Source: an uncultured virus (IMG/VR IMGVR_UViG_3300033121_000902) (lineage: Duplodnaviria > Heunggongvirae > Uroviricota > Caudoviricetes). From it: a stretch of 20,000 nt of DNA. How positions within the stretch are numbered: position 1 is the stretch's first letter; each line of letters begins with the position of its first letter. The notes beneath the pieces are model-generated. The model made no database searches. It had not been told where the DNA came from and saw only the letters and a program-made list of their open reading frames with translations. Location of the stretch: the IMG/VR virus record IMGVR_UViG_3300033121_000902; one strand, written 5' to 3'. Position numbers and translations under genes: made by a program. This document shows, one piece after another, positions 912-18,800 of this stretch.

Positions 912-940
912 TTGTTTTTTAATCTGTTAGGTTTTATAAT
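912..940 (+). promoter_or_regulatory. Possible sigma70-like promoter
   Basis: TTGTTT (912-917), 17-nt spacer, perfect TATAAT (935-940) in the intergenic gap. The -35 matches only 3/6 and the DNA is very AT-rich, so chance is plausible. Confidence 0.25.
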
Positions 941-972
941 CCTGTAGAGAAATTTTCTTTACAGGATTTTTT
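938..972 (+). terminator. Intrinsic terminator-like hairpin after the tube gene, overlapping the next RBS
   Basis: AATCCTGTAGAGAA (938-951) pairs with TTCTTTACAGGATT (955-968) with one G-U pair; T run 967-972. The 3' arm contains AGGA (963-966), 6 nt before ATG 973. Confidence 0.7.
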
Positions 973-2052
973 ATGTTTACAAACAATGAAGCTATATTAA
1001 AAGTTTCGAGAGTTTGTTCTGGACTTCTTTTCGTGAGCGTTAAAGACGTTGGAAGAAATAAGTTTGAACTCATACTCAGAAATCCATCTCTGTATTATAT
1101 AAATTTATCAAACGAATTATTTTTTGATTTCATCCAAGAAGGCTTGGAGTACGGCTTATATTCTGAATCGGAATATGAAGATTTTCTATTAGATAATGAA
1201 TTATGGTTACCAGAAGGCGAAGAAAAAATAAAGTCGCTTAGAAAAGATATGGACGAACTTAAAGTAAAAATGTTTCAAACAGGATTTAATTCAAGAGAGT
1301 TAAACGAATGTAGAAAAATTTTGAAATATGTTAAAGATGATATCAATAAATTATTTAGCCAAAAACATAGATACGATTATTTGTCAGCAAAAGGGTTCGC
1401 CGACTCAGAGAAAATGAAGTTTTTAATAGGCAACAGCTTATATGATATAAACAAAAGAAAACTTATTAAAAACGGATATTGGGAATTTCCTACATTTGTA
1501 TTAGAACAAGTAGCAGTTGTATATAAGAATTCAAGATTAACAGAAGAACAAATTAGATGGCTTGTTAGGAACGAACCGTGGAGAACAATTTGGACATCTA
1601 AAAAAGGCAACCTATCTTTGTTTACCGTTTCGTCAAGCGAATTAAGCGACGAGCAAAAAGCTTTTATAGCTTGGTCTTCTATTTACGATGCTATTACAGA
1701 AAATCCAGATAGCCCACCACAAGATGTTATAGACGACGATGATTTAATTGATGGTTGGATGATTTTGCAAAGAAAAAATAGAGATAAAGATTTATTGCAA
1801 AAAAGAGCAGAAAATCTTATCACGAATGATAAAATTAAAAATTCTAGCGATATATTTTTGCCTGTTTCTACAAAAGAGGACTTCGAAAAAGTTTCTTCAT
1901 TGAACGATGCTCAAGGAAATCTAATTAAGAAACAACGATTTTCATATGTAGAGAAACATGGAGTAGTTAAAGAATCAGAAATGCCTGATGTGAAGAAAGA
2001 TATTAAGATTGAAAGAAATAGAATGTACGCGGAAAAAGTTAAAGGAGGATAG
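973..2052 (+). CDS. Phage protein, probable tail assembly chaperone (long form)
   Basis: 359-aa ORF, AGGA RBS, charged and helical with a coiled-coil stretch and acidic PPQDVIDDDDLIDGW motif. Lies between tube and TMP genes. N-terminal half aligns by eye with the 2437..3252 protein. Confidence 0.55.
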   Translation: MFTNNEAILKVSRVCSGLLFVSVKDVGRNKFELILRNPSLYYINLSNELFFDFIQEGLEYGLYSESEYEDFLLDNELWLPEGEEKIKSLRKDMDELKVKMFQTGFNSRELNECRKILKYVKDDINKLFSQKHRYDYLSAKGFADSEKMKFLIGNSLYDINKRKLIKNGYWEFPTFVLEQVAVVYKNSRLTEEQIRWLVRNEPWRTIWTSKKGNLSLFTVSSSELSDEQKAFIAWSSIYDAITENPDSPPQDVIDDDDLIDGWMILQRKNRDKDLLQKRAENLITNDKIKNSSDIFLPVSTKEDFEKVSSLNDAQGNLIKKQRFSYVEKHGVVKESEMPDVKKDIKIERNRMYAEKVKGG

Positions 2053-2054
2053 AA

Positions 2055-2456
2055 ATGTCGGACAATAATGAAATGTGGCTTAAGATGAGGGAGGTAACGG
2101 AAAAAAGAAATTCATCTGAGCCTTCCTTGCTCAAACTTCAAAGGGAACAAGAGTCAAAGAAAAGATTATTAGCAATAGCAGAAAAAAAACTAAAAACTTC
2201 TTTCATTCATCCTTTAAGTTGTTTTGAACAAATTTTTGGACATCTTTGGGGTTTTGGAAAGAAAGAATCTGAGTTGACAGAAGAACAGAAAAAAAATAGA
2301 TTTTTGTGGAATTCTTTAAGGTCTAGCGTGTTAAATAATGGTAACGGACAGATTAGAGCAATCCACAATGAGTTAAATCAATATACGGTTAACTGGAACA
2401 TGTATAAATATACACTGAAGACTATGGAGAACAATGATGGCAACAATAAAGAATAA
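2055..2456 (+). CDS. Hypothetical phage protein in the tail chaperone region
   Basis: 133-aa ORF with strong RBS AGGAGG (2043-2048), starting 2 nt after the upstream stop. No recognisable motif. Confidence 0.8.
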   Translation: MSDNNEMWLKMREVTEKRNSSEPSLLKLQREQESKKRLLAIAEKKLKTSFIHPLSCFEQIFGHLWGFGKKESELTEEQKKNRFLWNSLRSSVLNNGNGQIRAIHNELNQYTVNWNMYKYTLKTMENNDGNNKE

Positions 2457-3252
2457 ATTAGTTTTTAACACAAAAGACAAAGATGATAACGATTTAGAAT
2501 TATGTGTTAAAAAGCCTAATACTCAACAGAGCAAGGAACTTCAAAAAGTATATAACAAAAACTTTAAAGAAGCGTTAGACTCTGGTGCTATTTTGAGAGT
2601 TAAAGTAGAACAAGTAGCAAGAGAACAAAATATATGGAATGATGCTATACAAAAAGAGTTTGAAAAGTTGCAGACTCAAATATCAGATTTAGAACTAAAA
2701 CTTGCTAAAGGTGGAAACGCTGGTTTAACTCTGAAAAAAGCTAAAGAAGTTGCTGTAGATTTGGCAGGAAAGCGTGGTCAGTTAAGAATGCTTCTAGCTC
2801 CGAGAAATGAAATTGATGTTAATACAGCAGAAGCACAAGCTGAGAATGCTAGATTCAATTATATGGTTGCTTTATGTACTTATTTTAATTCTGGAAAGAA
2901 TGAAGGTAAGAACTATTTTACAGATTACGAAGATTTAGTAGAGAGATTATCCGAAAAAGCTTCTATGGATGCAGCTAAATATCTTGGATTCCTGATTTAC
3001 AATCTTGAACCAGATTATGAAATGAGCCTACCAGAAAATAAATTTTTAGTTGATTACGGTTTTGCTAACAAAGATGGTAGACTGATTAATAAAGATGGCA
3101 AGTTTGTTAACTTAGATGGTCACTTGGTTGATGAAAAAGGAAGATTGATAAACGAGAAAAACGAACTTGTTGATAAAGACGGTAATCTTCTTGACGATAA
3201 GGGTAACTATAAGGTAGACTTCAAACCATTTTTACCTGAAGACGACGAATAA
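2437..3252 (+). CDS. Phage protein, probable tail assembly chaperone with C-terminal 7-aa repeats
   Basis: ORF begins ATGATG at 2434/2437; GGAG at 2426-2429 is better spaced to 2437. Helical/coiled-coil body, immediately upstream of the TMP gene, overlaps the end of the previous ORF. Confidence 0.6.
   Translation: MATIKNKLVFNTKDKDDNDLELCVKKPNTQQSKELQKVYNKNFKEALDSGAILRVKVEQVAREQNIWNDAIQKEFEKLQTQISDLELKLAKGGNAGLTLKKAKEVAVDLAGKRGQLRMLLAPRNEIDVNTAEAQAENARFNYMVALCTYFNSGKNEGKNYFTDYEDLVERLSEKASMDAAKYLGFLIYNLEPDYEMSLPENKFLVDYGFANKDGRLINKDGKFVNLDGHLVDEKGRLINEKNELVDKDGNLLDDKGNYKVDFKPFLPEDDE
3064..3210 (+). repeat. Seven tandem 7-aa (21-nt) coding repeats
   Basis: ANKDGRL INKDGKF VNLDGHL VDEKGRL INEKNEL VDKDGNL LDDKGNY. 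Confidence 0.9.
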
Positions 3253-3272: not shown

Positions 3273-3319
3273 GGATAGAGTTTATTGCAATAATTTTGTA
3301 ATAGCTCTATCCTTTTTTT
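3273..3319 (+). terminator. Intrinsic terminator-like hairpin upstream of the TMP gene
   Basis: GGATAGAGTTTATTGCAA (3273-3290) pairs with TTGTAATAGCTCTATCC (3296-3312) with one bulge and two G-U pairs, followed by T7 (3313-3319). Confidence 0.8.
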
Positions 3320-3335
3320 GTTATATGAGGATTAC

Positions 3336-6300
3336 ATGGCTGGTTTTAACATAGTCGCACAAATACAGCTTCAAGCTCCAACAAATCTAAGTAGAATTGC
3401 TTCGCAAATCCGCAGCAGTTTACAAGGAATTAATGCGAATATTAACCTAAACTTGTCTTCAGGGGCACTTAATTCCATAAATAACCTGACAAGTTCTATC
3501 AATAATCTTAATGCTAGTATAAGAGGTTTGAATACTAGTACAGCTACACTCAATACAACTTTCGCAAATTTTGCATCAAACGCAAACAGATTTAATTCTG
3601 CTGTCAGTAATACAACAAGTAATCTTCAAGCACAAGCTGTTGCTGCTGTTGCTAATGCTAAAGCTATAAAAAGTGCTTCCGAAGCTGCTGAAGAATTCGG
3701 TAAAGCTGCTGGTTTAGCTGGTAGAAGATTCTTAGGTTTTACATTAATTGCTGGTAGCGTTGCTGGTACAATTGTTGCTCTTAAAAATGCTGTCACTGAA
3801 GCTGTTGCTTTCGAGAGAGAATTCATTAAAATCTCTCAAATAAACAATATTACAGCTGGAGAACTTGCTGCATTAAATAATGAAATCACAAGATTAGCCA
3901 CATCTTTCGGTGTTTCTAATAAAGAATTAGTTAATACCGCTGTTACTTTAAAACAAGCTGGTTTAAGTGCTAAAGAAATCACTTCAGCTATGGAAGTTTT
4001 AGCAAAAACAACTCTTGCTCCTAGCTTTGAAAACATAAGAGATACTACTGAAGGCGTAATTGCTATTATGTCTCAGTTTAAAATAGAAGCTAAAGATGTA
4101 GAAATAGCTTTAGGTTCTATTAACTCTGTTGCTAACTCTTTCGCTGTAGAATCAAAAGACTTAATTTCTGCTGTTCGCCGTTCTGGTGGAGCTTTCAAAG
4201 CTGTTGGTGGTGATTTAAATGAGTTTATTTCACTATTCACATCAGTTAGAGCTACAACTAGAGAAAGTGCAGAAAGTATCGCTACTGGTTTAAGAACTAT
4301 TTTCACAAGATTACAGCGTTCCGACACTGTAAGTTCATTGGAACAATTAGGAATTAACCTTCGTTACACAAGAGAAGAAGCAGAAGCTTTAGGACAAACT
4401 AATTTAGAGAAACAATTCGTTGGTGCTTATGAAGCGGTTCGTAGATTAAGTCAAGGTTTAGCAGGTTTACGCTCAACAGACCCAAGATATTCATCTGTTA
4501 TAGAGGAACTTGGTGGCTATCGACAAATTTCTAAAGCTATTCCTTTAATTCAAGAGTTTACTTTAGCTCAAAGAGCATTAGCTGTTGCTCAAGCTGGCGG
4601 AACATCTATCACTCAAGCTGCTGATAAAGCTCAAGAGACATTCTTAGTAAAGCTTTCAAAAGTTAAAGAAGAGTTCTTAGCTTTCGGTAGAGTAGTAGTA
4701 AGTAGCCAAGGATTTCAGTCATTTCTTGATACTGCCCTTAAACTAGGAAATGCTTTCGTAAGAATAGCAGATGCTCTCTCTCCTTTGATTCCTTTATTAA
4801 CAACATTAACCGCAATTAAGCTTACTACAAATTTTGCTTCATTCTTCACAGGTTTAAGCGAAGGTTTCTCTGGACGCGGACCTAAAAGATTCGCTACAGG
4901 TGGTGTTGTTCCTGGACATGGTAACTCAGATACAGTTCCAGCATTACTAACTCCAGGTGAATTCGTAATCAATAAAACAGCTGCTCAATCAATAGGTTAT
5001 AGCAATCTAAATAATATCAGTAAGTTTGCAGCTGGTGGGAATGTTAATTTTAAAGTTGGAAAGAAAAATCTTTCTTCTGATGATGTTTACTTCTTATACA
5101 AATTAGCGGCAGAGAAACAAAACGCTTCAAAATATTTATCTCCAGAAATTAATGGAGTTCCAAACAAGACTGGAATAAACAATCAAGCGTATTTAAAAAA
5201 ACTTTTTGGAGATGGCGATTACTCAACTCCAGCTAAAGTATTTTCAGCATTTGGTTTTCCAGGTAAAGGAAAAAACGTACAAAGCCTCAGACAGTTGAGA
5301 GACGACTTGGAAAGAAGTTCTGGATTTTTACAAGAGCGAAACACCCTTCTTGCTAAAGGTTCATCTTTAGTTCGCGGAAAAACTTTGTATGCTCCTTTTG
5401 GTGGAGACGGAATTGGTTATGTAACAATGCCTCTTGGCGGTGGAGAAAAAGGTAAGGTCGGTAGAGACACATTAAATGCAGGTATAAGAGTTAGAGAATT
5501 AAGTATTGATAATTTAGGTAAAAAGGTTAATCAGAATGCTAAAGGTTTACTAGAAAAAGCTGGTATAGAAAAGATTGTTGGAGCGGTTAATGTTTATGTA
5601 ATGGGTAGTCAGCCTACAGCAGAATTTTATAACGAAATATTAGGAGAAGTTAGTTCTAACATTCAAGGTATTTACACTAAGAAATTTGGAGCTTCACGTA
5701 CTTCTGCTTTTAATAAAAACCAGTTATCAACAATTAGTGGTTATTTATTTGAAAAATACATAGAAGGTATAACAGGTAAACCTACAGCTGGAGAAACATC
5801 AGATTTCGAATATACTAGAAGTAACTTAAATTCTGTACTTGGTCCTAAGTTTGACCAATTTGTATTTCCTTCACCAATCAAATCTAACTATATTGATTTA
5901 AAATCAAGTTATAGTCGTGGTAATGATTCTGATATTATTAAGAAATATATCAATTCAACATCAAGAACTGGTAAGCTATTAGAAGCTTTAGGACAAGCAC
6001 CAGCTAAGTTTGCTACAGGTGGAATAGTTCCAGGTAGCGGACACGGCGATACTGTGCCAGCAATGTTAACTCCTGGTGAATTTGTTATTAAAAAAGCTTC
6101 AGCACAAGCTATTGGTTACGATAATTTAGCTAATATTAATAGATATGCTAGTGGTGGTACTGTACAGATTAGACCTCCCGGAGGAGAAATTGGAGTTTTA
6201 ACAACTGAAAGCAATGCTGTAAAAAATTCTTATGATATAGTAATGCCTAAATCTGGTTTTTCTCAACAAAATATATCAAAATTTAACTTTAAGACTGGAA

Positions 6301-9300
6301 ATTATAAAGTACCAAATGATAATGTTGCTGTAAGAGCTAGAAATTATATTCCGTTTAACCAACCTCAAGCTGTTGAGTTTAGAAGTAAACTAGAACGTAG
6401 AATTATAGGAGATTTATCTAAATTATCTAAAGAATTTTTTCCTCAACAATCTATTAATGAGAGTTATTCATCAGAAATTTTAGATAAAACATTAGGAACT
6501 CAAGGTTTAGGAAGAATGTTTGAAGCTGTTTTGCAATTTGCTTTCGCAAAGCAAGCTCCTAGCAAAACTGGTGATATTTTTGATTTCGTTCCCCCTCATA
6601 GTGAAGGTTTATCTAGATTTATTGGTAAAAATATTTATGCTGACGCTAAATACGCAGATACTTATTTCAGCAGAGCTTCTATATTGGGCAAAGCTGTCAA
6701 TGCTATTAATGCTGGACTTCCAGGCTTTGATTTTACATACCCTCTTTTAACACAAAAAGAAAAAACTAATGTTAGTAAGGTAGCATCATCTAGTTTAACC
6801 TTATCAAGAGGGGATGAGCAAAGTTCATTAGCTTCTGACGATTTTAATAAAAAAATAATTCCAACTCCAAAGAAATATGCTGGTGGTGGAGTAGCTTCAT
6901 TATTAACTCCTGGAGAGTTCGTAGTGAATAAAGAAACTGCTAGTAGAGTTGGACCTACAGCTTTAAACTACATGAATAATAATGGTAGATTGCCACAGAA
7001 ATTTGCTACTGGTGGATTTGTAGTAAATAAAGCGTCTGTTTTTTCAGCATTTAAAAAAATACAAGATATTTCTGGAATAAATTTTAGAGATATAGGGGCT
7101 TTAAATGATATTAAATTAAGTAGCAGTCCAGCAGTTTCAAATGCTCTTGGAGGGCAATTATCTTCTGAGTATAGAGGTATTTTTTATCCAGTCACAAAAA
7201 GAGTTGTTATAAATCCTAATACTGTTAATAGCGAAGAATCATTATTAGAGACATTAAGTCATGAATTAGGACACTCTATTGATGCTCAAAGAGCTTCTGT
7301 TTTAGGTACTAAATCTTATTACGCATCAAATATTAATGGTAATACTTATCGACGATACGCTGATAGATATCAAGAAAGATTGGAGAAACAATATCCTCAG
7401 TTATACGCTAAAATAATTGCTCAACCTGAAAATTTAAGAAAATATACTTTCCTTCCAGAGGAAAATTTTGCTAATTTATTTGCTAGTTATATAGATGTAA
7501 ATACCAGAGACAGAACTGCTCCTATATTTGAAGATTTTGATAAAGATATTTTGTCAAAATTAAGAACTAAAAAATTTGCAGATGGCGGTTATGTAGAAAA
7601 TGCCGTAAAATTACTTAATTCTAGACTTCGTATTAATAACAGCAGAAAAATTTTCAATGAAGTTAAAGTTCAAGATTTTTATCCTGATGATAGTCCATTA
7701 GATGGGGTTGCTTACGCTAATAGAAATATATATCTAAATAATAGGTTAAATCCAACTCAATTACATGAAACATTATTGCATGAAATAGGACATACAGCAG
7801 ATTCATATTTTGCTGCAAATACTTATGGTATACCAGTTAATGAACTTAAACCTTCATATGCTACATCAATTAAAGGCAACTTATTTTCCGGGATAGTTAA
7901 CAGAGAATATATAAAACAAAGAAATTCTTTATTAGGTAATACTAATGAAAAGGCTAAAGAAACTTTAGGTAATCTATCTCAAAGTAGATATGAATATATG
8001 AAGTATCTTTTTAGAAAAGAAGAACTTTTCGCTGAAGCTTTCAAGAATTTTGCTTTAGGAGATGATACACATAAGAAAGCGTTTTTAAAAGCTTTTAAAG
8101 GTTTTAATAAAGGTGGTAAGTCTGAAGATACAGTTCCAGCTTTGCTAACTCCTGGCGAATTTGTTATTAACAAAGATTCAGCTAATCGTTTAGGTTCAAA
8201 TAGTTTAAACTATATGAACGCTACTGGTAAAATTCCTGGCTATAATCGCGGTGGAGAAGTAAGAAGATATACTAGTGCCGGAAGAGTTAATATTGGTAGT
8301 AGTAGAACTGCTGATGACTTTATTACTTCTGGGTACAATAGAAACTTATCAGTTTTGGATAATAGTGTTGCGTCTGCTATCAAATTGGACTCATTAACTA
8401 ATTCTTTAATAGAAATAACAAAAAAACATGTACTTTCTCTTAATGCTGGATTAACTGAACAACAAGCTTATAATGTTGGCGTCGAAAGAGTTAATGCTTT
8501 ATTAAAGACTAATTTTCAATTAATAGCAAATAATAAAGGTGAGCTAGTTGGTTATACAAACAGAGGATTTGCAAATCAGCCAGTTTCTAAATATTCTAAC
8601 GATTTAAGACAATCTCAACAGACAAATTTAAACCAACTTTTAGAAAAATTATCTAACGAAGCAGCTTTGAAACAAAATAAACCATCTTTTAGAGAAAGAT
8701 TATCTGGTATTGCAGGTTTATTAGCTAGCACTGGTGTAACTTATGCAGCTTCAGGTTTAGAGAGTTTAGCTGGTACTGCTGAACAAGCTGCTTTATCTGG
8801 TTCTGGTACTGCTTATAGTTTAGCTAAAGCTGGAAGTTCTGCTTTATCATCTGGAGCAACTATTGGTTTTGCTGGAGGTAACGTTTTTGGTCCTATTGGT
8901 GCTGCAATTGGTGGAACTATTGGAGCTTTATCTGGATTTATTACGGCGTTAACCGATGCTAATAGAGAAATATTAAATGCTAAAATTGGTTTAAATATCA
9001 AAAAGTTGGGAGAACAATTTGAAATATTAAATAAAGTTTCTTTAAGAGATATTTCTGTATCTAATATTAGCGTAGCATCAAGCGTAATTGGAGATTTATT
9101 AAAAGATTCTAGAAAAAGAAGTATAAGCGAAGCTACGACTTTAGGAGTTACAAATATACCTTCATTTATAAATGCCTCACAAAAAAATGATAGAGAAGTA
9201 TTCCAAAATAGTTTGCCAAACTTTATAGAATTCCTTAATAAGAATATAGAAGAACAAGCTAAGAATTTCGTTAGAAATCCAGAAAATGCTAATTTACAAG

Positions 9301-12300
9301 GTGCTGAATTAAGAGCTTCATTACCAACAGCGCAATTATTAGCTGGCAATAATGGTTTAAATCAGCAATTAGTAGATATTTTATCTAAATTTAGACCAAG
9401 AGAAGAAGTGGTAGCTGATTTACAAAAGCAACAATTACAAGCTATTCAAAGACAAAGAATACAGGCTGTACAAACAGAAGGAAGAATAGGAGTAGGTAGA
9501 GAACTTACAGTATTTGAAAGATTTTCATCTTCTATAGAAAATGTTTCTAGAGAAATGAATAAATTACAAATTGTCTCACAATCATTACAAGACGCTTTTG
9601 AAGGTGTCGTTTCAGTATCAAAGATAGCAATAAATGATAGAGCAGGTAACCTATTAGGAATAGGAAACCGTTTTGAAACAGAAAATGCTATAAATAATGT
9701 TGGGTCAGCATTCGGTTCTAATGGTTCTCAGTTAAGACAGTTTGGTAATGCTTTTGATGAAGTATCAAGAATTCTACCTGGAATTATAAGTCAAGTTGTT
9801 CAGCAAGGAGGGGGCTTACGAGATACAGAAACAACTGTAGATTCAAGAATCAGAAACCTTTTAACTGGTCAATTGGGTGGTGCAGCAAGAGTAGCAAACA
9901 ATCCAGAATTAAATGCTATTATTGGTGCTGTTTCAAGTCAAGCCTCAAACCTAAATTATGATAAACTTATCCAAGAAGGAAGACTCGATGCTGGTAAACT
10001 TATAGAAAAACTTTTATCTGATGCTGCACCATTCAAAGAACTTTTTAGCAGTTTAACAAAACAAATCGGAGAAGCAGCTAATAGATACAATGAAGAACTG
10101 GACAAACACCAAAAGCGTTTACAAAAAATCGGGGAACAGGAAGATAGAGTACGCCAACTCCAGTTGCAAGCTTTGCGGTTCTCCGTTGAGAGAAATCGTC
10201 CCGCTGCCTCTTCTGCTGATATTTTAAGCTTCCAACAGTTATCAGAACCCATAACTTTTAGAGCTAGAAGACTTGCAGAATTAGGTGGAGTTAATGGAAA
10301 TAATGCTGAAAACGCTTCAATATTAGGTTCTCAATTAAGAGATGTTAATTCTCGTATAGAATCTTCTCAAAGAAACTTACAAACAGCTTTTGATAGATTT
10401 GGATTAAATTCTCCACAGTACAAAGAAGCTGAACAAAGTTTGAGATTGCTAAAAAATCAATCAAACTCTTTAACTACAGCATTAACAGATTTAACAAATG
10501 CTGCAAAAGCTACAGCAGCACAGGAAAAACTTGCTATAATTAATAAAGATAGAGAAGGTAGATTATCATTTACAGAAAGATATATTACTAGTGATATAAC
10601 AAACAGAATTGAAACTCAGAGAAATTCTTATTTAACTTCTCAAGCTTTAAACCAAGGCAATTTATTATCTTTTAATGAAGAACAAAGAAGAGGAATACTA
10701 GATTTCTTATCTCAAACATCTGAAATTTCATTAACTGGATTTGGTGGTAAAAGAGGCAAAGAATTAAGAGATGATTTATTAGGAAATACAGCTTCGGCTT
10801 TAGGTCTTGGACAGCCTGTAAGAATTGCTAATGAAGGTGAACAACTGAGAGATGTTATTGCTAAAGCTTTTAATACTGCTATTGAAGCTGAAAGACAGTT
10901 AATAGATTCAAGAAGAGAACTTGATAATAATCTAATTTCTAATCTTGAAAGACAACAAAGAGAATTCTTTGACAGATTACTATTAAACAGCACTCAAGAT
11001 TTAAGAAGTCGTGCTGAAACCAATGTTTTAACCGGCGAATCTAGATTAGCTGAATCTAGAGTAGGTTTTGAAAACGCTAATAGATTAAGAAATTTAGGCA
11101 TTGTTAGACAGGAACAATTAGAAGCTTTGAGAACAGCTAAAGATGATTCTGGCAAAAATCTTTTAGAAAAATACGAAAGTAGTTTTAGATTAAGAAATCT
11201 AAATATACCTGAAAGAGTAAGGCAGATTATAGATAATAATCCAGATTTAGGAAGCGTTAATCGTGGAAATCCAGGTTTAGAACAATTAAGAGAAACTTTA
11301 GCACCATTAAGACTTAATGAAGATAAGTTAAATGAAATAATACGACTAGCTGGTAGCGTTAATACGGGTAATCCAACTAATAGACCAAGAATAGAACAGG
11401 TATTAGATAGAATCAGACAGCAAATTCCAGATGTTGTTAATACAAGAAATCAGTTAAGAGATAATACAGCAATACAAAATGAAGGTTTATCTGCTATAGC
11501 TAGAGGATTTTCTGATGGTACATTGACATCTCAACAATTATTAGGATTAGGAGAAGGTTTTAATCAGAATAATAGATTAGAAAACGCTTTTAATAATTTT
11601 CTAGATTCTACACTTGAATTAAGAAGATTAAAAGGTATTTTAGATAATTTTGATTTAACTATAAGAAATTTAAGTACAAGAATTAATGAAAATAGACCAG
11701 GATTTGTTGGACCTCCAACTCCAGGAGCAGGTTTAGCAACTGGTGGTATAATTGGTTCCAGCACACATTCTTCTATAGGTGGTCCTAGAGGAACCGATAC
11801 TGTACCAGCTTGGTTAACTCCTGGTGAGTTCGTAGTAAATAGAAAAGCTGCTCAAGCTAATTTAGGTTTATTACATGCTTTGAACGGCGGTCAACAAGGT
11901 GGTGGTGGATATTTTGCTTTAGGAGGTTTAGTAACTAGAGATAGATTATTTGCCGTTTTACAAAATTTAAGAGGTCGTAGAGCAAATAACACTGTTAATC
12001 CTTTTGGAGATGAAACAGGAGAACCAGATTTAGGATTTGCTGGTCAATTAGCTGATATTGCTGAAAAAGACGATGCTTTATTTAGAACTATATTTGAAAA
12101 TGCTAGAGTTGCAGCGTTCGGTTATTTAAAATTTAAACGAATGGAATTGTTTAATACACAAAGAGCTTTGGCTAATCCTGCTCAAAGAGGAGTTTTCGGA
12201 AACGATAGAGTAAATAGAAATAATCAATTGACTGAAAAATATAATGATTTATATAATGGTTTTTTGAATATTTCTCAAGAAAATACTCCTAATGAGACCG

Positions 12301-14045
12301 GAAAAGCTATAAATTATATTTCAAGATTACCAAAAGGTATAATAAATAATTTACGTTCTATTATTTATGGCAAGACTCAGCAGTTTGGTACTATTGACGC
12401 AATGAATGGTCAAATGTTGCAGAATTATTACATAAATACAACATTACCATATATTACTAATTATGTTAATTTAGCTAAAAGAGCTAGAGATGAGGCCGCA
12501 CAAAGATTACAAAATCCTGGAATTAATGAATTACAAAGAACAAATTATTCATTACAACAGAGAACAGCTGAAAGATTTATAGGAGATTTTGCGGACGCTC
12601 CTTTAGATAGAGCAGCTATAGTAAATGTTGCAGATAATTTGAATCCTCCAAATCAAGATAATATTAGAGCTAAATTATTAAAATATGCAAAATTATCATT
12701 AAGAGGAATAGTATTACCAAATTTTAGAGAAGGAGAAGATACTTTAAGAGTGTTCCCAGGATTAGCAGATTTAGGTGGAGCTATTGGTAATGTAGCAGGA
12801 AGAGAACAAGGTAGAGCAAACGCTGTTAATCAAGCTAGAAATGAAGCTGCTGAAGCTGCTGATTTATTAACTAAAAGAAAAGATAATGAATCAAAGTTAA
12901 ATTTTGAAGAATATATTACCGCTAACAAAAACGCCCTTTTAGTTAGAGCTAGGGGTTTTGGTGGAGATATACCAGAAGATTTCATTAATGAAAAAGCAGC
13001 TGCGTTACAGAATGCAAGAAATTTATGGATTACAAACTATAAAACTAGAAATGATTTAATTCAAAGAGGGGTTGGAGGTTTCAATCGTTCTAGAACTGAA
13101 GACATTTTATTTAGTGAATATATAAGATTAAAAGATAATTTTAACACAGACGGATTAGCAAAAGAATTATCTTCTCGTCAGTTTGCTCGTGCTACAGCTG
13201 AAATAAATCCTAATTTGATAGACGACATTAGAACATTTTTAAGAACAATACCAGAAGGTGATAGTAACGTATTTGATTCTTTCAAAAAGACAGTTGAAGA
13301 AAAAAGAAATCTTTCAAATACATTGCAGGCAGTAACCGATGAATTTCCAGGAGTAATAGGAAGGGCAGATGCTCCACAAGAATTATTGCAATTGCAAACA
13401 CAATATGCTAATTCTTTAGTTGAATATAATCGCTTATCTAAAAAAGCTTTTGAAAGAGTATCAGCTAAGAGATTTGGTATAGAATTATTTACAGATAGTT
13501 CAAATATAGCTGATTTCTTAAGATTAGCTAGAGGAGGTTCTGTTCCAGGAACAGGATTTGGAGATAGTGTACCAGCATTATTAACTCCTGGAGAGTTCGT
13601 AATCAATAAAGCTGCTGCTAGTGCTATTGGATTTAGTAATCTTCAGAAAATGAATAGTGTTGCTAAATATGCTGATGGAGGAAATGTTTCTCCTTCTTCG
13701 CCAAGCATATTCAATCAAAACGTTGGAGGTTTATTTGGAAGAATCAATGTCAATAATATTGGTGGAGAAACAGAAAAAGTTGGTAGTACATTCTCTAATA
13801 GCGTTAAAGAATTAAACTCTGTATTTAATACTTTTGCTGGATTTATTAGTCCTTTAGTTGAAGCTTTAAAGAATTTCCCATCAACAATAACAGGAAGTTT
13901 TACTCATAACGTAAGCGTTAATTTAAACGGTGCTGAAATATTAAAGAATTTAGAACCAACAATTAAAGAATTGGTTGAAAATCAAACAGCCGAAGTTTTA
14001 AGAAATTATATCAGAAATAATCTTTACGAAGCAGGGCAGGTATAA
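3336..14045 (+). CDS. Giant tail tape measure protein with inserted nuclease-like and metallopeptidase domains (3569 aa)
   Basis: ATG 3336 follows GAGGA (3327-3331) and is preferred over TTG 3318, which lies in the terminator T tract. N-terminal region (~3800-4600; AVAFEREF...ITRLATSFGVSNKEL...LKQAGLS...ESAESIATGLRTIFTRL) has the pattern of the TP901-type TMP core. Hydrophobic/Gly-rich segments and long coiled-coil regions follow. Canonical gene position. Confidence 0.93.
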   Translation: MAGFNIVAQIQLQAPTNLSRIASQIRSSLQGINANINLNLSSGALNSINNLTSSINNLNASIRGLNTSTATLNTTFANFASNANRFNSAVSNTTSNLQAQAVAAVANAKAIKSASEAAEEFGKAAGLAGRRFLGFTLIAGSVAGTIVALKNAVTEAVAFEREFIKISQINNITAGELAALNNEITRLATSFGVSNKELVNTAVTLKQAGLSAKEITSAMEVLAKTTLAPSFENIRDTTEGVIAIMSQFKIEAKDVEIALGSINSVANSFAVESKDLISAVRRSGGAFKAVGGDLNEFISLFTSVRATTRESAESIATGLRTIFTRLQRSDTVSSLEQLGINLRYTREEAEALGQTNLEKQFVGAYEAVRRLSQGLAGLRSTDPRYSSVIEELGGYRQISKAIPLIQEFTLAQRALAVAQAGGTSITQAADKAQETFLVKLSKVKEEFLAFGRVVVSSQGFQSFLDTALKLGNAFVRIADALSPLIPLLTTLTAIKLTTNFASFFTGLSEGFSGRGPKRFATGGVVPGHGNSDTVPALLTPGEFVINKTAAQSIGYSNLNNISKFAAGGNVNFKVGKKNLSSDDVYFLYKLAAEKQNASKYLSPEINGVPNKTGINNQAYLKKLFGDGDYSTPAKVFSAFGFPGKGKNVQSLRQLRDDLERSSGFLQERNTLLAKGSSLVRGKTLYAPFGGDGIGYVTMPLGGGEKGKVGRDTLNAGIRVRELSIDNLGKKVNQNAKGLLEKAGIEKIVGAVNVYVMGSQPTAEFYNEILGEVSSNIQGIYTKKFGASRTSAFNKNQLSTISGYLFEKYIEGITGKPTAGETSDFEYTRSNLNSVLGPKFDQFVFPSPIKSNYIDLKSSYSRGNDSDIIKKYINSTSRTGKLLEALGQAPAKFATGGIVPGSGHGDTVPAMLTPGEFVIKKASAQAIGYDNLANINRYASGGTVQIRPPGGEIGVLTTESNAVKNSYDIVMPKSGFSQQNISKFNFKTGNYKVPNDNVAVRARNYIPFNQPQAVEFRSKLERRIIGDLSKLSKEFFPQQSINESYSSEILDKTLGTQGLGRMFEAVLQFAFAKQAPSKTGDIFDFVPPHSEGLSRFIGKNIYADAKYADTYFSRASILGKAVNAINAGLPGFDFTYPLLTQKEKTNVSKVASSSLTLSRGDEQSSLASDDFNKKIIPTPKKYAGGGVASLLTPGEFVVNKETASRVGPTALNYMNNNGRLPQKFATGGFVVNKASVFSAFKKIQDISGINFRDIGALNDIKLSSSPAVSNALGGQLSSEYRGIFYPVTKRVVINPNTVNSEESLLETLSHELGHSIDAQRASVLGTKSYYASNINGNTYRRYADRYQERLEKQYPQLYAKIIAQPENLRKYTFLPEENFANLFASYIDVNTRDRTAPIFEDFDKDILSKLRTKKFADGGYVENAVKLLNSRLRINNSRKIFNEVKVQDFYPDDSPLDGVAYANRNIYLNNRLNPTQLHETLLHEIGHTADSYFAANTYGIPVNELKPSYATSIKGNLFSGIVNREYIKQRNSLLGNTNEKAKETLGNLSQSRYEYMKYLFRKEELFAEAFKNFALGDDTHKKAFLKAFKGFNKGGKSEDTVPALLTPGEFVINKDSANRLGSNSLNYMNATGKIPGYNRGGEVRRYTSAGRVNIGSSRTADDFITSGYNRNLSVLDNSVASAIKLDSLTNSLIEITKKHVLSLNAGLTEQQAYNVGVERVNALLKTNFQLIANNKGELVGYTNRGFANQPVSKYSNDLRQSQQTNLNQLLEKLSNEAALKQNKPSFRERLSGIAGLLASTGVTYAASGLESLAGTAEQAALSGSGTAYSLAKAGSSALSSGATIGFAGGNVFGPIGAAIGGTIGALSGFITALTDANREILNAKIGLNIKKLGEQFEILNKVSLRDISVSNISVASSVIGDLLKDSRKRSISEATTLGVTNIPSFINASQKNDREVFQNSLPNFIEFLNKNIEEQAKNFVRNPENANLQGAELRASLPTAQLLAGNNGLNQQLVDILSKFRPREEVVADLQKQQLQAIQRQRIQAVQTEGRIGVGRELTVFERFSSSIENVSREMNKLQIVSQSLQDAFEGVVSVSKIAINDRAGNLLGIGNRFETENAINNVGSAFGSNGSQLRQFGNAFDEVSRILPGIISQVVQQGGGLRDTETTVDSRIRNLLTGQLGGAARVANNPELNAIIGAVSSQASNLNYDKLIQEGRLDAGKLIEKLLSDAAPFKELFSSLTKQIGEAANRYNEELDKHQKRLQKIGEQEDRVRQLQLQALRFSVERNRPAASSADILSFQQLSEPITFRARRLAELGGVNGNNAENASILGSQLRDVNSRIESSQRNLQTAFDRFGLNSPQYKEAEQSLRLLKNQSNSLTTALTDLTNAAKATAAQEKLAIINKDREGRLSFTERYITSDITNRIETQRNSYLTSQALNQGNLLSFNEEQRRGILDFLSQTSEISLTGFGGKRGKELRDDLLGNTASALGLGQPVRIANEGEQLRDVIAKAFNTAIEAERQLIDSRRELDNNLISNLERQQREFFDRLLLNSTQDLRSRAETNVLTGESRLAESRVGFENANRLRNLGIVRQEQLEALRTAKDDSGKNLLEKYESSFRLRNLNIPERVRQIIDNNPDLGSVNRGNPGLEQLRETLAPLRLNEDKLNEIIRLAGSVNTGNPTNRPRIEQVLDRIRQQIPDVVNTRNQLRDNTAIQNEGLSAIARGFSDGTLTSQQLLGLGEGFNQNNRLENAFNNFLDSTLELRRLKGILDNFDLTIRNLSTRINENRPGFVGPPTPGAGLATGGIIGSSTHSSIGGPRGTDTVPAWLTPGEFVVNRKAAQANLGLLHALNGGQQGGGGYFALGGLVTRDRLFAVLQNLRGRRANNTVNPFGDETGEPDLGFAGQLADIAEKDDALFRTIFENARVAAFGYLKFKRMELFNTQRALANPAQRGVFGNDRVNRNNQLTEKYNDLYNGFLNISQENTPNETGKAINYISRLPKGIINNLRSIIYGKTQQFGTIDAMNGQMLQNYYINTTLPYITNYVNLAKRARDEAAQRLQNPGINELQRTNYSLQQRTAERFIGDFADAPLDRAAIVNVADNLNPPNQDNIRAKLLKYAKLSLRGIVLPNFREGEDTLRVFPGLADLGGAIGNVAGREQGRANAVNQARNEAAEAADLLTKRKDNESKLNFEEYITANKNALLVRARGFGGDIPEDFINEKAAALQNARNLWITNYKTRNDLIQRGVGGFNRSRTEDILFSEYIRLKDNFNTDGLAKELSSRQFARATAEINPNLIDDIRTFLRTIPEGDSNVFDSFKKTVEEKRNLSNTLQAVTDEFPGVIGRADAPQELLQLQTQYANSLVEYNRLSKKAFERVSAKRFGIELFTDSSNIADFLRLARGGSVPGTGFGDSVPALLTPGEFVINKAAASAIGFSNLQKMNSVAKYADGGNVSPSSPSIFNQNVGGLFGRINVNNIGGETEKVGSTFSNSVKELNSVFNTFAGFISPLVEALKNFPSTITGSFTHNVSVNLNGAEILKNLEPTIKELVENQTAEVLRNYIRNNLYEAGQV
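4890..5039 (+). repeat. GG/PGEFV module copy 1
   Basis: FATGGVVPGHGNSDTVPALLTPGEFVINKTAAQSIGYSNLNNISKFAAGG. Confidence 0.95.
5040..6008 (+). other. TMP cargo 1: PD-(D/E)xK restriction-endonuclease-fold-like domain with N-terminal extension
   Basis: GYLFE (5739-5753), SDFEY and YIDLK (5889-5903) give the E...D...DxK order of this fold. Paralogous to cargo 2. Confidence 0.55.
6009..6158 (+). repeat. GG/PGEFV module copy 2
   Basis: FATGGIVPGSGHGDTVPAMLTPGEFVIKKASAQAIGYDNLANINRYASGG; same 150-nt length as copy 1. Confidence 0.95.
6159..6875 (+). other. TMP cargo 2: PD-(D/E)xK restriction-endonuclease-fold-like domain
   Basis: GRMFE (6510-6524), IFDF and YADAK (6636-6650). Confidence 0.6.
6876..7016 (+). 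repeat. GG/PGEFV module copy 3 (shortened)
   Basis: YAGGGVASLLTPGEFVVNKETASRVGPTALNYMNNNGRLPQKFATGG. Confidence 0.92.
7017..7574 (+). other. TMP cargo 3: zincin metallopeptidase domain
   Basis: RGIFY...VVINP...LLETLSHELGHSID (HELGH 7260-7274) and distal EENFA (7458-7472) helix that could supply the third Zn ligand. Confidence 0.85.
7575..7589 (+). repeat. Lone GG motif separating the two peptidase domains
   Basis: KK-FADGG without the PGEFV core. Confidence 0.8.
7590..8102 (+). other. TMP cargo 4: second zincin metallopeptidase domain
   Basis: DGVAY...IYLN...LHETLLHEIGHTAD (HEIGH 7779-7793) and distal EELFAE (8019-8036). Confidence 0.85.
8103..8255 (+). repeat. GG/PGEFV module copy 4
   Basis: FNKGGKSEDTVPALLTPGEFVINKDSANRLGSNSLNYMNATGKIPGYNRGG; its second half most resembles copy 3 (LNYMNxxGxxP). 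Confidence 0.92.
8700..8951 (+). other. Gly/Ala-rich hydrophobic (glycine-zipper-like) segment of the TMP
   Basis: LSGIAGLLASTGVTYAASG...GATIGFAGGNVFGPIGAAIGGTIGALSGFITAL, typical of membrane-interacting TMP segments. Confidence 0.75.
11733..11927 (+). repeat. GG/PGEFV module copy 5
   Basis: LATGGIIGSSTHSSIGGPRGTDTVPAWLTPGEFVVNRKAAQANLGLLHALNGGQQGGGGYFALGG. Confidence 0.92.
13524..13682 (+). repeat. GG/PGEFV module copy 6
   Basis: LARGGSVPGTGFGDSVPALLTPGEFVINKAAASAIGFSNLQKMNSVAKYADGG. Confidence 0.95.
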
Positions 14046-14491
14046 TGGGTTTCAAAATTTTACATAACACAAACGCTCCATTATTAATTGGAGATGGAGG
14101 ATATCTGCTTTGGTATCCTGAAAGCGGAACTTATATTCCATTTTCAGGAACGATGAATCTATTCATTGGTGGACAAGGGGAAGAAGTTTCAGCTTCAATT
14201 CCTCTTTTTATATGTAATGAATTTGTTGAAAATTATTTAGACCTTTTTATTGAAGGGCAGGGAAATACTCCTGGAGCAATACCTTTAAATAAAACTTTAA
14301 ATTTGGTTATAAAATGTCCTGTTTCAAGAGATATTGATTTATATATCAAAGGTAAAGATACATCTATATCCAACGAAATTAATCTCTTTGTTAAAGGTGC
14401 TAATACTATTAGCAATAATTTAGATTTGGTTATGCCTAACGTTTACGATAATATTAGTAATACTATAAACCTATATATACATGGATTTTAA
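14045..14491 (+). CDS. Small probable tail structural protein with short beta-strand repeats
   Basis: 148 aa; the ATG overlaps the TMP stop (TAATG). Eight hxL[FYV]h motifs: MNLFIGG, IPLFICN, LDLFIEG, LNLVIKC, IDLYIKG, INLFVKG, LDLVMPN, INLYIHG. Confidence 0.75.
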   Translation: MGFKILHNTNAPLLIGDGGYLLWYPESGTYIPFSGTMNLFIGGQGEEVSASIPLFICNEFVENYLDLFIEGQGNTPGAIPLNKTLNLVIKCPVSRDIDLYIKGKDTSISNEINLFVKGANTISNNLDLVMPNVYDNISNTINLYIHGF

Positions 14492-14493
14492 TC

Positions 14494-15891
14494 ATGCCAG
14501 TTCTTTATGATAACAAAAAGATAATTCCCGGTCCTTTTATTTCTATTAGAAGAGAAAATATTTCAACTGAAGCTGGAAGATTACGTAGACCAATATTTAG
14601 AATAACAGCTAAAGGCACTTTAAGTGTACATAAAGGTTCTCCTAATGAAGATGGAGATTTTTGGACAAATACAGGATATCCTCCAGATACTACTATTATT
14701 GATGCCGATAACAGATTGGCAATCATTAGAGATAAGCAAGGTGCTTTAACAGATTTGTTTAAAACTCAAGGTAAATTCTTTGAAATACAACCGTATGACG
14801 GTTCTTTATCTACTAAATTTATACCAAGAGTTTTATCAATAAATTTTGATGAAGGTAATTGGTTTGATAAATGTACTTATAGTATAGAAATGGAAGCTGA
14901 TTTTATTATTTTTGGTGATTTGCAAATACCAGAAGATTTAGATTCAAGTGACGATTTCGAAGAGTCATGGACTATAGATGCTAGTGATGAAAAACAACGA
15001 ACATTTAAGATGACTCATAATGTATCAGCACAATTTAAAGATAGATATAATATTGATGGTGGAGGAACATTAGATAAAAGAGGTTGGGAGATAGCTAAAG
15101 AAGTAGTTGAAAGCAAGATGGGTTTTTCTTCTCCAATTAGAAATAATTCAAATACTAGCGTAGATAGTTCTTATCAACCTTATAACCATGTTGTTCAAGA
15201 AGCCACTGACATAACAGGCGGTAAATACAGTATAATAGAAACATGGTTGCTCTATGATGGAGGAGTGTTCTTTGAAGAATATACTGTAAGTACAAGAACT
15301 AATAGTTTAGAAGGTAGTAGCACTGTATCAGTTGACGGAAATATTCAAGGTTTATCAACACAAGACGGTTTTGGAGATAGATGGACTAATGCAGAAAATG
15401 GTTGGATTACCATACAAGCTTTAATTTATTCTAGAGCTACTTCATTAAGCGGAGTAGCTACATTAGTATCAACTCCAGTAAGTTATGTAGTTGGTAAAAA
15501 TCAAAACCAAGGTACTATTACTTATAATTATGAATTTAGCAATACCAATGGTACTTCTATAGCTGGAGTTTTGAGAGAAACAATTACCGTACAAGATTCT
15601 TTTGCTACAGATATTGTTGCTAAGCATGTATGCGTTATGCGTAGTGTGGGTCCGGTATTACAACCAATTGGCACGCAGACAGAAAAAAGAAGAACTTTAA
15701 ACATTGAATGTCAAGTATCGCCAGCTTTGGGTAGCCCACCAACATATTCTTCAGCACCTAGCGTTACAGCTATAATTACAGAATATACTCCTACAGCACA
15801 ATACGAAGGCCCATTTGTTGATAGAAACGAAGAATCGTTTAGTAAGACTTCAGGACGTTATACAAGAACAGTTTCATGGTTTTGGGTGTAA
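14494..15891 (+). CDS. Probable distal tail / baseplate hub-type structural protein
   Basis: 465 aa, Thr/Ser/Gly-rich with alternating beta-strand patterns, 2 nt after the previous stop, in the usual post-TMP Dit position. Product inferred from gene order. Confidence 0.55.
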   Translation: MPVLYDNKKIIPGPFISIRRENISTEAGRLRRPIFRITAKGTLSVHKGSPNEDGDFWTNTGYPPDTTIIDADNRLAIIRDKQGALTDLFKTQGKFFEIQPYDGSLSTKFIPRVLSINFDEGNWFDKCTYSIEMEADFIIFGDLQIPEDLDSSDDFEESWTIDASDEKQRTFKMTHNVSAQFKDRYNIDGGGTLDKRGWEIAKEVVESKMGFSSPIRNNSNTSVDSSYQPYNHVVQEATDITGGKYSIIETWLLYDGGVFFEEYTVSTRTNSLEGSSTVSVDGNIQGLSTQDGFGDRWTNAENGWITIQALIYSRATSLSGVATLVSTPVSYVVGKNQNQGTITYNYEFSNTNGTSIAGVLRETITVQDSFATDIVAKHVCVMRSVGPVLQPIGTQTEKRRTLNIECQVSPALGSPPTYSSAPSVTAIITEYTPTAQYEGPFVDRNEESFSKTSGRYTRTVSWFWV

Positions 15892-15894
15892 AAA

Positions 15895-18800
15895 ATGCCA
15901 TTATTAGGACTTAAGTTATTCGGATGTACTGTTAAAAATTTCTCTACTAATCTTGGTTGGGGAAGTTCAAAGAGTTCAGTGCGTGTTAGTTTAGTGCAAG
16001 ACACTTTATTAGGAGATTTATTCACTCCTCCTACTATCGGCACTCCTGTAAATATATCTTTTTATGCACTTAATTTTTCTGGTTTGCTGCAAAGGCATGA
16101 AGAAAGAAAAAGTGAGTCAGCAAATCCTGAATACGATATATTAATAGAAGACCCTAGAGAAATACTAGAAGGCACAGAAATTATAACCGGAGCTTATAAC
16201 GGTTCCACGTTTGGGGTTCCTAACTTAATTAATGCTTATGGTTATTGGGAAAATGTAGGTTTTGGAGGTTCATTAGTTAACGAAAGCGGAATGCCTTGGT
16301 ATCTAATAAAAAACGCTGTACAAACAATTACAGCCGGAACTAATGGTTCTTATGGTGGGCCATTAACATATAAAGGTGTTACTTATAAGCTAGATTTAAG
16401 TCAAATTCCAACAGTTCCAAATTATTATCGAATTCAAGGTGGAACATATACTAACTTAATGAGAGCTATAGAAGAAGTTTGCTCAGATAGCGGTTGTGAC
16501 TTTTTCGTAGAGCTTATTATTACTAATACTACTAGAACAATTAAAGTAAGAACTGTTAGTAGGAGGCTACAACCCGCTCCTGGAGTATTAACAAGTTTTA
16601 TCCAAACTTATACAAATAGTGGTGCGGCGAAAAGAAGTAGTGCTGGACTAGAAGCTAGAAATGAGATAACATCTTCATTTTTAGTTGGTGGCGAACAAAC
16701 AACAATGTTCGAAACATCAACAGGTATTCATCAATACTTTGGTTTAGATGTTTTAGGTTTACCTTTAGTTGGTAACGGCGTTGATTATTCAATGACTGCT
16801 ACTCTAAACTGTAGCGAAGTTTTTGATATATTAGGCACAAACGAATATGATACTGATATGCTGGAATTATTAAATGCTACATCAGATGTAACTACATGGA
16901 AATCTTATATACGTTCAAATAAACCAACTATTTCAAATTTAGTAGGATTAGATGGTATGCCTGGAGTTTTAGGAAATAATCCTCCTCAACCACAGGTTTT
17001 TAATGACCACGTATTAATGCGTGCTGGTAATCTAGCAGCGCACAATACAGCTATTGTCAGCGCGGAAACAGACTGGAAAGCTAACCGTATTTTCAGAATG
17101 GTACAGAAGAATGCTCATTTATTAGGAAAACAATTTTTAGTAGAAATACCATTCGTATTAGCTAAAGTAGAGCCTGATACTACAAAAATAGTATATAGTC
17201 ATGAACCTACTAACGCTGGTTACAAAGAAACTGGTTCTCCATTAAATTTGGACGAAGTTTTCCAAGATAATTTCAGTCCAGCGGCAGATGGAAGATATCA
17301 ACCGTTTTGTTTATTTGGAGATTTAGGAGATATAGATTTACGTAAAAATGATGTAGGAAGTTATGTTGTTGGTACGGATGGAGTTTACGTTAAATGCTCT
17401 GTTGACGAAAAAATTATTTGGCTTGACGAACTAACTCCATGTGTTCTAGTTCATGTAAACGAAGGCTTAGATAAACTTCCAACCACAGGAGTAGGAAACG
17501 AAAATCTTTTGCCTCAAGCTTTAGGAGGAAACAAAGCCGGTTTTGCCATTGCTGCCGCAAGAGGAGCAGCAGGGGCTTTTTCTTTATTAAAATCAACCCG
17601 ACCTCTTCCTGCTTATCCTACTGATTTTGCTATTCCACTTAAAAGTAATATACTTACTTATGGACCTTGGTATGCAATAGGTGGGCAAGGAAAGGTTCAT
17701 TATTCTCAAGACCCAGGTTTAGTACCTTGGAATTATGGTGGAACTACCATCATGAATCTAACAGGCTCGTCAAGAGTAACTGATGCTATTACATGGCAGC
17801 AATATGGGGAAACCGGAGATATAGAAATACCTGGAGCGCCAATAATTAACTTAGGCGATTTATTACAAGGTAACGGTCCAACTCTAACAAATATGGATAT
17901 TCAGTACGGAGCGGGTGGTGTAACCACCACTTATCGTTTCCATACTTTTACTAATAAAACAGCTTTTGGTAACTTAGGGAAGACTCAGTTTGATAGAATT
18001 AAAAAATTAGCTTTGAATAATCAAGCTATAAGAAGAGATGTAAGACAAGCTTTTAATAGATTACTTCCTCCTTCTAGTATAGCAAATGCTCAAATCAGCT
18101 TTTTACAGAATGAGATTAGTAAAGAATTAGGTATACCAGAAGCTCCTAGAAGTCCGCATGGTATAATCACAGCATGTTCTTACGAAGACGCTTCAGATAT
18201 AAATAAAAGAAGAGTGGGTTGTACGACAGCTAGTACAGTGGAAGCTTTACGTAGTTGGCAAGCTACTGATGTAACTATCAGCGGAACTCAAATTAGTTAT
18301 GAAGAAGTTTCTTCTATGTCTATGGATGGTTTTTTTAGACCTTTTAAGACAAAATTAAAAGAGGTTGGAACTTTTGATGATTATACATCAACTTATATTA
18401 ATCCTCTTAATTACGGAAGTGGAAACACGGTATTAGATTTAGACCCTTTTCAAAATGGTAATGATATTGACATTTTACTAGTTGATGGTGGTCAATATTC
18501 AATAGACGCACATAATTATATTAGTGGAAGTTTAAATGAACAAAATCAAAAACCTTTAGCTTTAAGAGCGCCATTAATATTAAATGGTTGGGGTTATTCT
18601 ACTGACGATGCTTGGGTTCCAAATGAAAATCCCACAACTTTAGACGGAAATATAGAAACTAATTATTTAAAGAAAAGTCATCATTGGAAAACTGGTCCGC
18701 TAGAGACATTATGGGATGACCAAAGAGGGGTTTGGACATCTTTTGGCAATTGTTTAGGAGTATTAACGTCTGATTGTGGTCCTGGTAGTGGAGTGAAGAT

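Follow-up and report, generated by a model that had tools for sequence, protein, structure and literature searches.

A giant phage tape measure protein with lambda-type joint modules and inserts that vary at the joints

The tape measure gene and its joint modules

The window analysed here, a stretch of 20,000 nucleotides (nt) from an uncultured virus of the Caudoviricetes (IMG/VR record IMGVR_UViG_3300033121_000902), carries on its plus strand, at positions 3336-14045, a gene for a tape measure protein (TMP) of 3,569 amino acids (aa). The protein is interrupted by six copies of a joint module which is homologous to one in lambda gpH, and among its relatives these joints are preferred junctions of sequence exchange. 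Based on homology searches, the N-terminal part was matched to PF10145 at 92.4 bits (cut-off 33.2, E 4e-26) and to TIGR01760 at 98.7 bits (cut-off 28.8), and a dozen tape measure PHROGs matched the protein. The gene product is a TP901-type tape measure protein, and the phages that share it form a large, long-tailed and uncultured family; its designation as a TMP in a preliminary description of this DNA is borne out by the two family matches above cut-off. The open reading frame (ORF) extends from a TTG at 3318 (3,575 codons). The ATG at 3336 is most likely the true start, since the copy in the database is 3,569 aa long and alignments with homologues begin at residue 7.

Six joint modules were located on the plus strand by pattern, by a family profile and by alignment of the copies with each other, at 4890-5039, 6009-6158, 6876-7016 (a short form), 8103-8267, 11733-11927 and 13524-13682. 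Each begins, at the first of these coordinates, with a half-site of the FAxGG type, which is degenerate (FNKGG) in the fourth; a lone FADGG half-site was found at 7575-7589. The consensus of about 50 aa reads (K/R)(F/Y)AxGG, DTVPAxLTPGEFV, a short helix and (F/Y)AxGG, and the TPGEFV cores fall at aa 545, 918, 1197, 1611, 2834 and 3423. Alignment of the six copies revealed 15 invariant columns, and every copy was recovered by the family profile (domain E-values between 7e-15 and 2e-29), so that the repeat is far beyond chance. The six modules of about 50 aa and the lone FADGG that had been listed from inspection of the sequence were recovered at the same positions by pattern and profile. In DNA the copies are 66-78% alike over 64 nt; it is therefore the peptide that is conserved, and this is not a recent repeat able to collapse an assembly.

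A family profile built from about 600 modules matched residues 724-797 of lambda gpH with an E-value of 4e-12, directly following a glycine-rich hydrophobic run in that protein. The six-copy profile, searched against deposited sequences, matched lambda gpH (8iyk_H) at E 3.6e-4 and the TMP of mycobacteriophage Douge at E 1.5e-4, the latter with two copies. The joint is homologous to the C-terminal joint of lambda gpH. Module 6 lies about 120 residues from the C-terminus, at a relative position like that of the joint in lambda, and therefore corresponds to lambda's single copy, while the other five copies are internal. When the module alone was used in a tblastn search, 137 cultured-phage records were found, most of them annotated as TMPs; 98 were from Gordonia phages, often with matches in two places. 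Searching phage TMPs with the module, a check proposed earlier, gave matches in lambda gpH, Douge and Gordonia phages. The module thus extends well beyond this phage as a standard joint reused across TMPs, and the earlier term "standard linker" is upheld insofar as the same joint occurs in many TMPs including lambda gpH. Among the literature text matches listed for the strings TPGEFV, LTPGE and PGEFV there was no paper on a phage TMP.

The module was also observed in proteins of about 730-800 aa encoded beside the baseplate hub genes of T4-like cyanophages, such as Synechococcus phages Bellamy (locus L072, 3065-5464) and S-H34 (locus L073, 1990-4197); one of these proteins is annotated as an "endolysin". 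Outside full modules, FAxGG occurred 97 times in this protein and 119 homologues, against about 21 occurrences expected from composition. The lone half-sites scattered across the family may be joint remnants or minimal joints.

Conserved scaffold and exchange at the joints

Homologues of the TMP numbered 531 proteins of 1,966-6,257 aa at E <= 0.001, and an alignment-based scan of IMG/VR yielded at least 642 related stretches; the longest contigs of the family reach about 240 kb. When the single protein was scanned against IMG/VR it gave no relative, and a near-identity DNA search of cultured phages gave no match. A tblastn search of cultured phages with the first 1,594 aa returned distant matches to the N-terminal domain only, at about 25% identity. 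Modules and blastp segment matches were counted in this protein and 119 listed homologues, i.e. 120 proteins out of the 531. All 120 have between two and eight joints; the first is located near aa 495, and some 119 aa separate the end of the last from the C-terminus.

The segments of the protein, all on the plus strand, differ widely in how often they are shared. The conserved N-terminal TMP domain of TP901 type (3336-4889) was matched in 119 of 119 homologues, with 48-98% identity among the ten best. Segment E (8268-11732, aa 1651-2807) was matched in 39 and the C-terminal 120 aa in 24 of the 119; the corresponding values were nine for insert A (5040-6008), six for segment C (7017-7574), one each for insert B (6159-6875) and insert F (11928-13523), and none for insert D (7590-8102). 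Within segment E a core of about 930 aa was found by profile as a single copy in 157 of 247 sequences. It contains a glycine-rich hydrophobic stretch (aa 1837-1876, 8826-8945), and the segment gave sub-threshold matches of the C19orf12-like and glycine-zipper types. Because this core is conserved across homologues it is a part of the scaffold and not cargo; the preliminary description, in which the 1,157 aa of segment E were taken for an insert unlike a TMP, has to be corrected on this point. Judged from conservation, the N-terminal domain, the core of about 930 aa and the C-terminal end appear to form a fixed scaffold on which the joints sit. The C-terminal end (13683-14045) is probably the part that binds the tail tip, as suggested by the structures of lambda, T5 and Douge.

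The nearest relative, P0003, is a full-length protein of 3,586 aa from other sources and is 82% identical. Compared in windows of 50 aa, the two proteins are mostly 86-100% identical; at aa 1251-1600, the very interval that joints 3 and 4 enclose, identity drops to 14-34%. Two further regions of 50-72% identity, at aa 2551-2750 (10968-11567) and aa 3201-3400 (12918-13517), are not bounded by modules. The divergent block of P0003 again holds two zincin-like domains, and is therefore a divergent version of the same type of insert and not a different cargo.

A second kind of difference was found in run X2, from another study. A contig of 1,335 nt (depth 5.75) matches 7050-7579 with 61 differences, has 18 other letters after 7579 and resumes at 8126, skipping 7579-8126 in frame. 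The junction so formed is an unbroken joint identical to the fourth joint of P0003. The relative represented by this contig thus possesses the first zincin-like domain and lacks insert D. Since the joint is unbroken at this place both in the X2 relative and in P0003, the lone FADGG of the window is the left half of joint 4, split off by insert D, which itself ends in the degenerate second half-site FNKGG. It had been anticipated that relatives would share the scaffold and differ between the modules, and this was found in the homologue counts, in P0003 and in the X2 contig.

The position of such differences was analysed in 27 pairs of proteins with at least 94% N-terminal identity, which were cut greedily to 18 independent pairs (nine dropped). 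Each alignment was divided into blocks of high identity and of divergence, with a minimum block length of 80 aa, and a block boundary was scored as lying at a joint when within 25 aa of it. With the modules kept, 41 of 101 boundaries lay at a joint, against 15.3 expected. Conserved modules could themselves create boundaries, and the analysis was therefore repeated with the module residues excised; 27 of 91 boundaries then lay at a joint against 6.0 expected (binomial p 2e-11), which places the edges of divergent blocks among close relatives at joints 4.5 times as often as expected. The joints are preferred, not exclusive, junctions of insert exchange.

Domains between the joints

The inserts of this protein, which total about 1,500 aa, comprise two copies of one domain (the AB domain), two zincin-like domains and an orphan stretch of 539 aa. 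The AB domain was found in insert A at 5574-5963 (aa 753-882) and in insert B at 6318-6830 (aa 1001-1171). The two copies are paralogous, with reciprocal profile E-values of 5e-32 and 7e-25 supported by alignments. In 37 sequences G..FE is invariant, while FDF keeps its D and DAK its K in at least 90%; all three motifs are present in copy 2. The residues keep the order E ... D ... (D/E)xK of PD-(D/E)xK nucleases, a likeness at the level of motifs. Two AlphaFold2 models, based on 18 and 37 sequences (mean predicted local distance difference test, pLDDT, 62.4 and 77.8), were mostly helical with two very short strands, the second model being that of copy 2. The ESM Atlas provided leads to Mrr_cat and Tox-REase-7 at a score of 0.81, below 0.9. 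What had been described as two nuclease-like segments is thus one paralogous domain for which a nuclease fold was not recovered and the motif order is a lead. In a library of 1.84 billion proteins the domain was present in 559 cluster representatives, most of which are 1,800-5,500 aa long and carry it near aa 620-830.

Segment C, with HELGHSID at nt 7260, and insert D, with HEIGHTAD at nt 7779, each hold a zincin-like domain (7017-7574 and 7590-8102). They are paralogous, the profile of C matching D at E 1e-12, and HExxHxxD is invariant in an alignment of five sequences. The domain, in which this motif is usually followed by a later PEE, was detected in 18 of 247 sequences, in up to three copies. 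Its best matches in PHROGs were to phrog_87 ("metallo-protease", E 7e-7, obtained for insert D) and phrog_4529 ("minor head protein and DNA pilot", E 2e-5). Of the two metallopeptidases proposed earlier, the HExxH motifs stand at both places, while no curated peptidase family was reached above cut-off. Insert F, of 539 aa, was assigned to no family in Pfam or PHROGs and was seen in the nearest relative only.

Among relatives, ADPrib_exo_Tox was identified above cut-off in six of the 120 listed homologues and in one of 43 IMG/VR loci. The latter (L011, 11696-15145) encodes two ADP-ribosyltransferase domains, with Arg, STS and ExE or QxE motifs, and a zincin-like domain between them. KKFAxGG follows each of the ADP-ribosyltransferase domains, and only a degenerate SGG/KGG follows the zincin-like domain. 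ADP-ribosyltransferases require nicotinamide adenine dinucleotide (NAD) and a cytoplasmic target; therefore at least some members of the family appear to carry a domain that acts in the cytoplasm. No such domain was found in the protein of this window. The earlier suggestion of cargo enzymes is accordingly supported in part, by ADP-ribosyltransferases in some relatives, while the inserts of this protein reached no curated enzyme family above cut-off and any action of theirs against host defences would be conjecture.

Possible role of the inserts

Several known carriers bear a resemblance to this protein. According to the available text of PMC12617516, a cut in the glycine-rich region towards the C-terminal end of lambda gpH yields gpH*, of about 78 kDa and spanning roughly residues 1-710, and gpHC, of about 14 kDa; of gpHC only residues 818-849 are resolved, bound to gpI. 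Lambda gpH has the same joint in the place of the sixth joint here, ahead of a short end that binds the tail tip, but with one joint, no inserts and 853 aa it differs from the present TMP, which has six joints and inserts totalling about 1,500 aa. For T5 pb2, processing that separates an enzyme part from the ruler has been shown experimentally: the protein is cut after R1127, and the C-terminal part (pb2C), which bears a metallopeptidase motif described as muralytic, is retained at the tail tip (PMC10038345, in the portion available). There it is a matter of one cut and one C-terminal enzyme part. The sequence of pb2 (locus L075, 17122-20781) gave no match to the module profile and no HExxH by pattern. 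By eye, the letters that follow the cut (about residues 1124-1150) resemble the left half of the joint (AxGG..PG ... GE..V).

Thermus phage P23-45 gp96 is, like the present protein, a giant TMP (5,002 aa), and combines an enzyme working on cytoplasmic substrates with metallopeptidase and membrane domains. Its enzyme, a virion RNA polymerase, is N-terminal and of known function, and in the description available to us (PMC10770324) neither repeated joints nor cassette swapping are reported. The idea of enzymes borne on a TMP is not wholly new, T5 pb2 and P23-45 gp96 being precedents. In actinophages, the 2,109-aa TMP of Gordonia phage Yeezy (locus L074, 210-6536) contains the module four times, once in a weak form, and the third copy marks the end of an SLT transglycosylase domain (aa 1511-1601); Douge gp16 (PDB 8ZDO) has two copies. 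The TMP of the actinobacteriophage TM4 reportedly carries a cell-wall hydrolase motif. These actinophage proteins differ in being smaller, in having recognisable peptidoglycan hydrolase inserts and in that no zincin-like or AB domains were seen in them.

Two other systems were compared by their published descriptions, each available in part. Polyvalent proteins, known from phages and conjugative elements, also carry many effector domains on a chain, are delivered with the DNA, are highly mosaic and have a zincin-like peptidase that is proposed to separate the domains (PMC5512222). They differ in that their carriers are head or DNA-pilot proteins, while here the carrier is a TMP, the delimiter a defined joint, and the predicted insert domains of just two types; the word "tape" is absent from the paper (Iyer et al. 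2017, PMC5512222). The Sle1-type effectors of actinobacterial injection systems likewise have a modular carrier derived from a TMP, with exchangeable domains, but are the cargo of a contractile nanomachine and not the ruler of a phage tail (PMC13277306). In a limited library, searched for TMPs together with polyvalent proteins, ADP-ribosyltransferases, cargo or effectors, and anti-defence, no paper describing joint-delimited TMP cassettes was found.

The best explanation, to which we assign a probability of about 0.6, would be a fixed TMP scaffold with lambda-type joints as junctions at which inserts are gained, lost or replaced in evolution, the inserts being delivered by the tail. In such a phage the TMP would fill the tail tube and be expelled first at infection, its core would help to form a channel across the envelope, and the inserts in the N-terminal third would leave last, with the DNA. 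They could thereby reach the cell wall, the membrane or the cytoplasm as ready-made proteins. We infer both the delivery and any enzyme activity of the inserts. That they act as delivered enzymes is plausible by precedent and by analogy with the relatives that bear ADP-ribosyltransferases.

A number of results weigh against this explanation. For the AB domain no Pfam match was obtained in this protein or in 33 short homologues, no sequence match in the PDB by profile search and no Foldseek match of the models at E <= 0.001. A VIA-wide search with the model gave a best Z of 5.1 with no match above noise, and the restriction enzyme Bse634I, at Z 4.3 over 119 residues, was within noise as well. 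The HExxH domains remained below the Pfam cut-offs for M78, DUF6782, ATLF, M76 and SprT-like families, and the best E-value in a PDB profile search with the zincin alignment was 0.028. In 42 of 43 related IMG/VR insert zones (the 1,150 aa after joint 1) no Pfam domain was found at E <= 1e-5. The preliminary description would have been contradicted by invariant segments without enzyme folds; the segments do vary, and the lack of recognised domains in nearly all of these zones speaks on the other side. The exchange observed in P0003 is of the same kind of insert and not of another cargo. Moreover, 64 of the 91 divergence boundaries lie away from joints, with thresholds chosen by the analyst; for the "plug-in format" envisaged at the outset there is an enrichment of divergence edges at joints, which is not exclusive.

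Some of these observations would be expected of an ordinary long ruler, in which the joints are structural (hinges, or contacts with the tube, a chaperone or the hub), the inserts help to set the length and to penetrate the envelope, and this phage delivers no effector that acts in the cytoplasm or against defences. The near-fixed position of the AB domain fits a built-in part of the TMP as well as it fits cargo, and most insert zones are without an enzyme family. The zincin-like domains would then hydrolyse the cell wall, as in T5 and actinophages; metallopeptidase domains are "characteristic of many TMPs" in the available text of PMC10770324, and the T5 motif is given as muralytic in that of PMC10038345. 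The module adjoins the transglycosylase domain of Yeezy and occurs in the cyanophage proteins of about 800 aa encoded beside baseplate hub genes. An ordinary ruler is nevertheless a possible and not a probable account, since the ADP-ribosyltransferase domains of relatives need NAD and a cytoplasmic target, the TMP of P23-45 carries a cytoplasmic enzyme, and the duplication, swapping and loss of inserts among close relatives are unexpected for a fixed structural part. It is rather unlikely that the protein is a true polyprotein, cut at or beside each joint after tail assembly, perhaps at the x|AxGG half-site, and the corollary that the pieces are stacked in the tube and enter the host separately, with lambda gpH* and gpHC as the case of a single joint, is equally doubtful. 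Arguing for cutting, lambda's single joint (aa 724-797) comes directly after the cut region of gpH, computed cuts at residues 710-737 give 77.7-80.1 kDa against the reported value of about 78 kDa, and the T5 cut, which frees an enzyme part, falls just before the letters likened above to a left half-site. FAxGG was also found within 80 aa of the end of the AB domain in 22 of 42 cases, and of the zincin-like domain in 10 of 23, i.e. after about half of the insert domains, as compared with 11-12% of random places; it stands alone 97 times, as noted, and KKFAxGG follows each ADP-ribosyltransferase domain of L011. However, the likeness to T5 is by eye and is not recovered by the module profile, and the residue before AxGG is F or Y here and R in T5. 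As far as the Ur-lambda paper (PMC12617516) is available, the gpH cut is placed only roughly, the protease is unnamed, and T5 and lambda are the only TMPs known to be cut. The zincin-like domain, being present in only 18 of 247 sequences, cannot be a general protease. That the joint is a conserved signal for both TMP processing and recombination, by which giant TMPs mature in the tail into a train of proteins, is accordingly a tentative idea that we rate as improbable, and the same holds for its extension, in which cargo is plugged in by recombination and separate proteins enter the host ahead of the DNA.

Variation between the joints might also reflect escape, the variable blocks being surfaces under diversifying selection for evasion of host factors or defences that recognise TMPs. 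The SNIPE defence nuclease binds siphophage TMPs, and swapping a TMP region led to loss of dependence and sensitivity, according to the available text of PMC13190303; in P0003 the domains between joints 3 and 4 are of an unchanged type although identity there is 14-34%, as compared with 86-100% over most of the remaining protein. Escape leaves the gain or loss of a whole domain (insert D), the duplicated domains and the toxin-type ADP-ribosyltransferases unexplained, and as the principal cause it is quite unlikely, though it is compatible with scaffold-and-insert delivery and not exclusive of it. An assembly artefact, with the giant ORF a chimera joined at the modules, is conceivable in a metagenome-type contig with repeats and was the misassembly that could have overturned the preliminary description. 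Its probability is practically negligible: the joints are only 66-78% alike in DNA, and a Logan contig of 29,157 nt (run X1) spans 3300-14100 with zero differences. X1 is probably the source sample, so that this contig is a check on the assembler and does not amount to independent sampling. The 82%-identical full-length relative P0003 comes from other sources, and in a second study the stretches 3300-7007 and 8372-11333 are covered by contigs with about 89-94% identity. Gaps in coverage of the gene in runs X5 and X6 were left out of account.

To our knowledge, the processing of the lambda TMP has gone unexplained for forty years. A joint that marks the cut region of lambda and is repeated up to eight times offers a concrete site at which the question of TMP processing can be addressed. 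TMPs are the first phage proteins to enter the cell, and joints with exchanged inserts suggest how proteins might naturally be loaded into a phage tail. If delivery by the tail proves true, phage proteins that act early could be catalogued from this family, and the joint would serve as an engineering handle for phages that carry a chosen protein into bacteria.

The surrounding gene order consists of an ORF of 359 aa, two small overlapping ORFs, the TMP gene, and then ORFs of 148, 465 and more than 1,368 aa, which fits the order expected for a siphophage tail module. The seven neighbouring ORFs (63-3252 and 14045-19998) had no match in Pfam, PHROGs or NCBIfam. The 359-aa and the more than 1,368-aa ORFs, the two that were searched against cultured phages, had no counterpart there. 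The two small ORFs upstream of the TMP gene (2055-2456 and 2434-3252) overlap by 23 nt (2434-2456), the second being in the +1 frame with an ATG of its own; no slippery run was seen by eye in the overlap, and a frameshift of the chaperone type was not evident. The 359-aa protein occupies the position of a major tail protein, and its only likeness in the ESM Atlas is to clusters of hypothetical viral proteins, with a score of 0.96.

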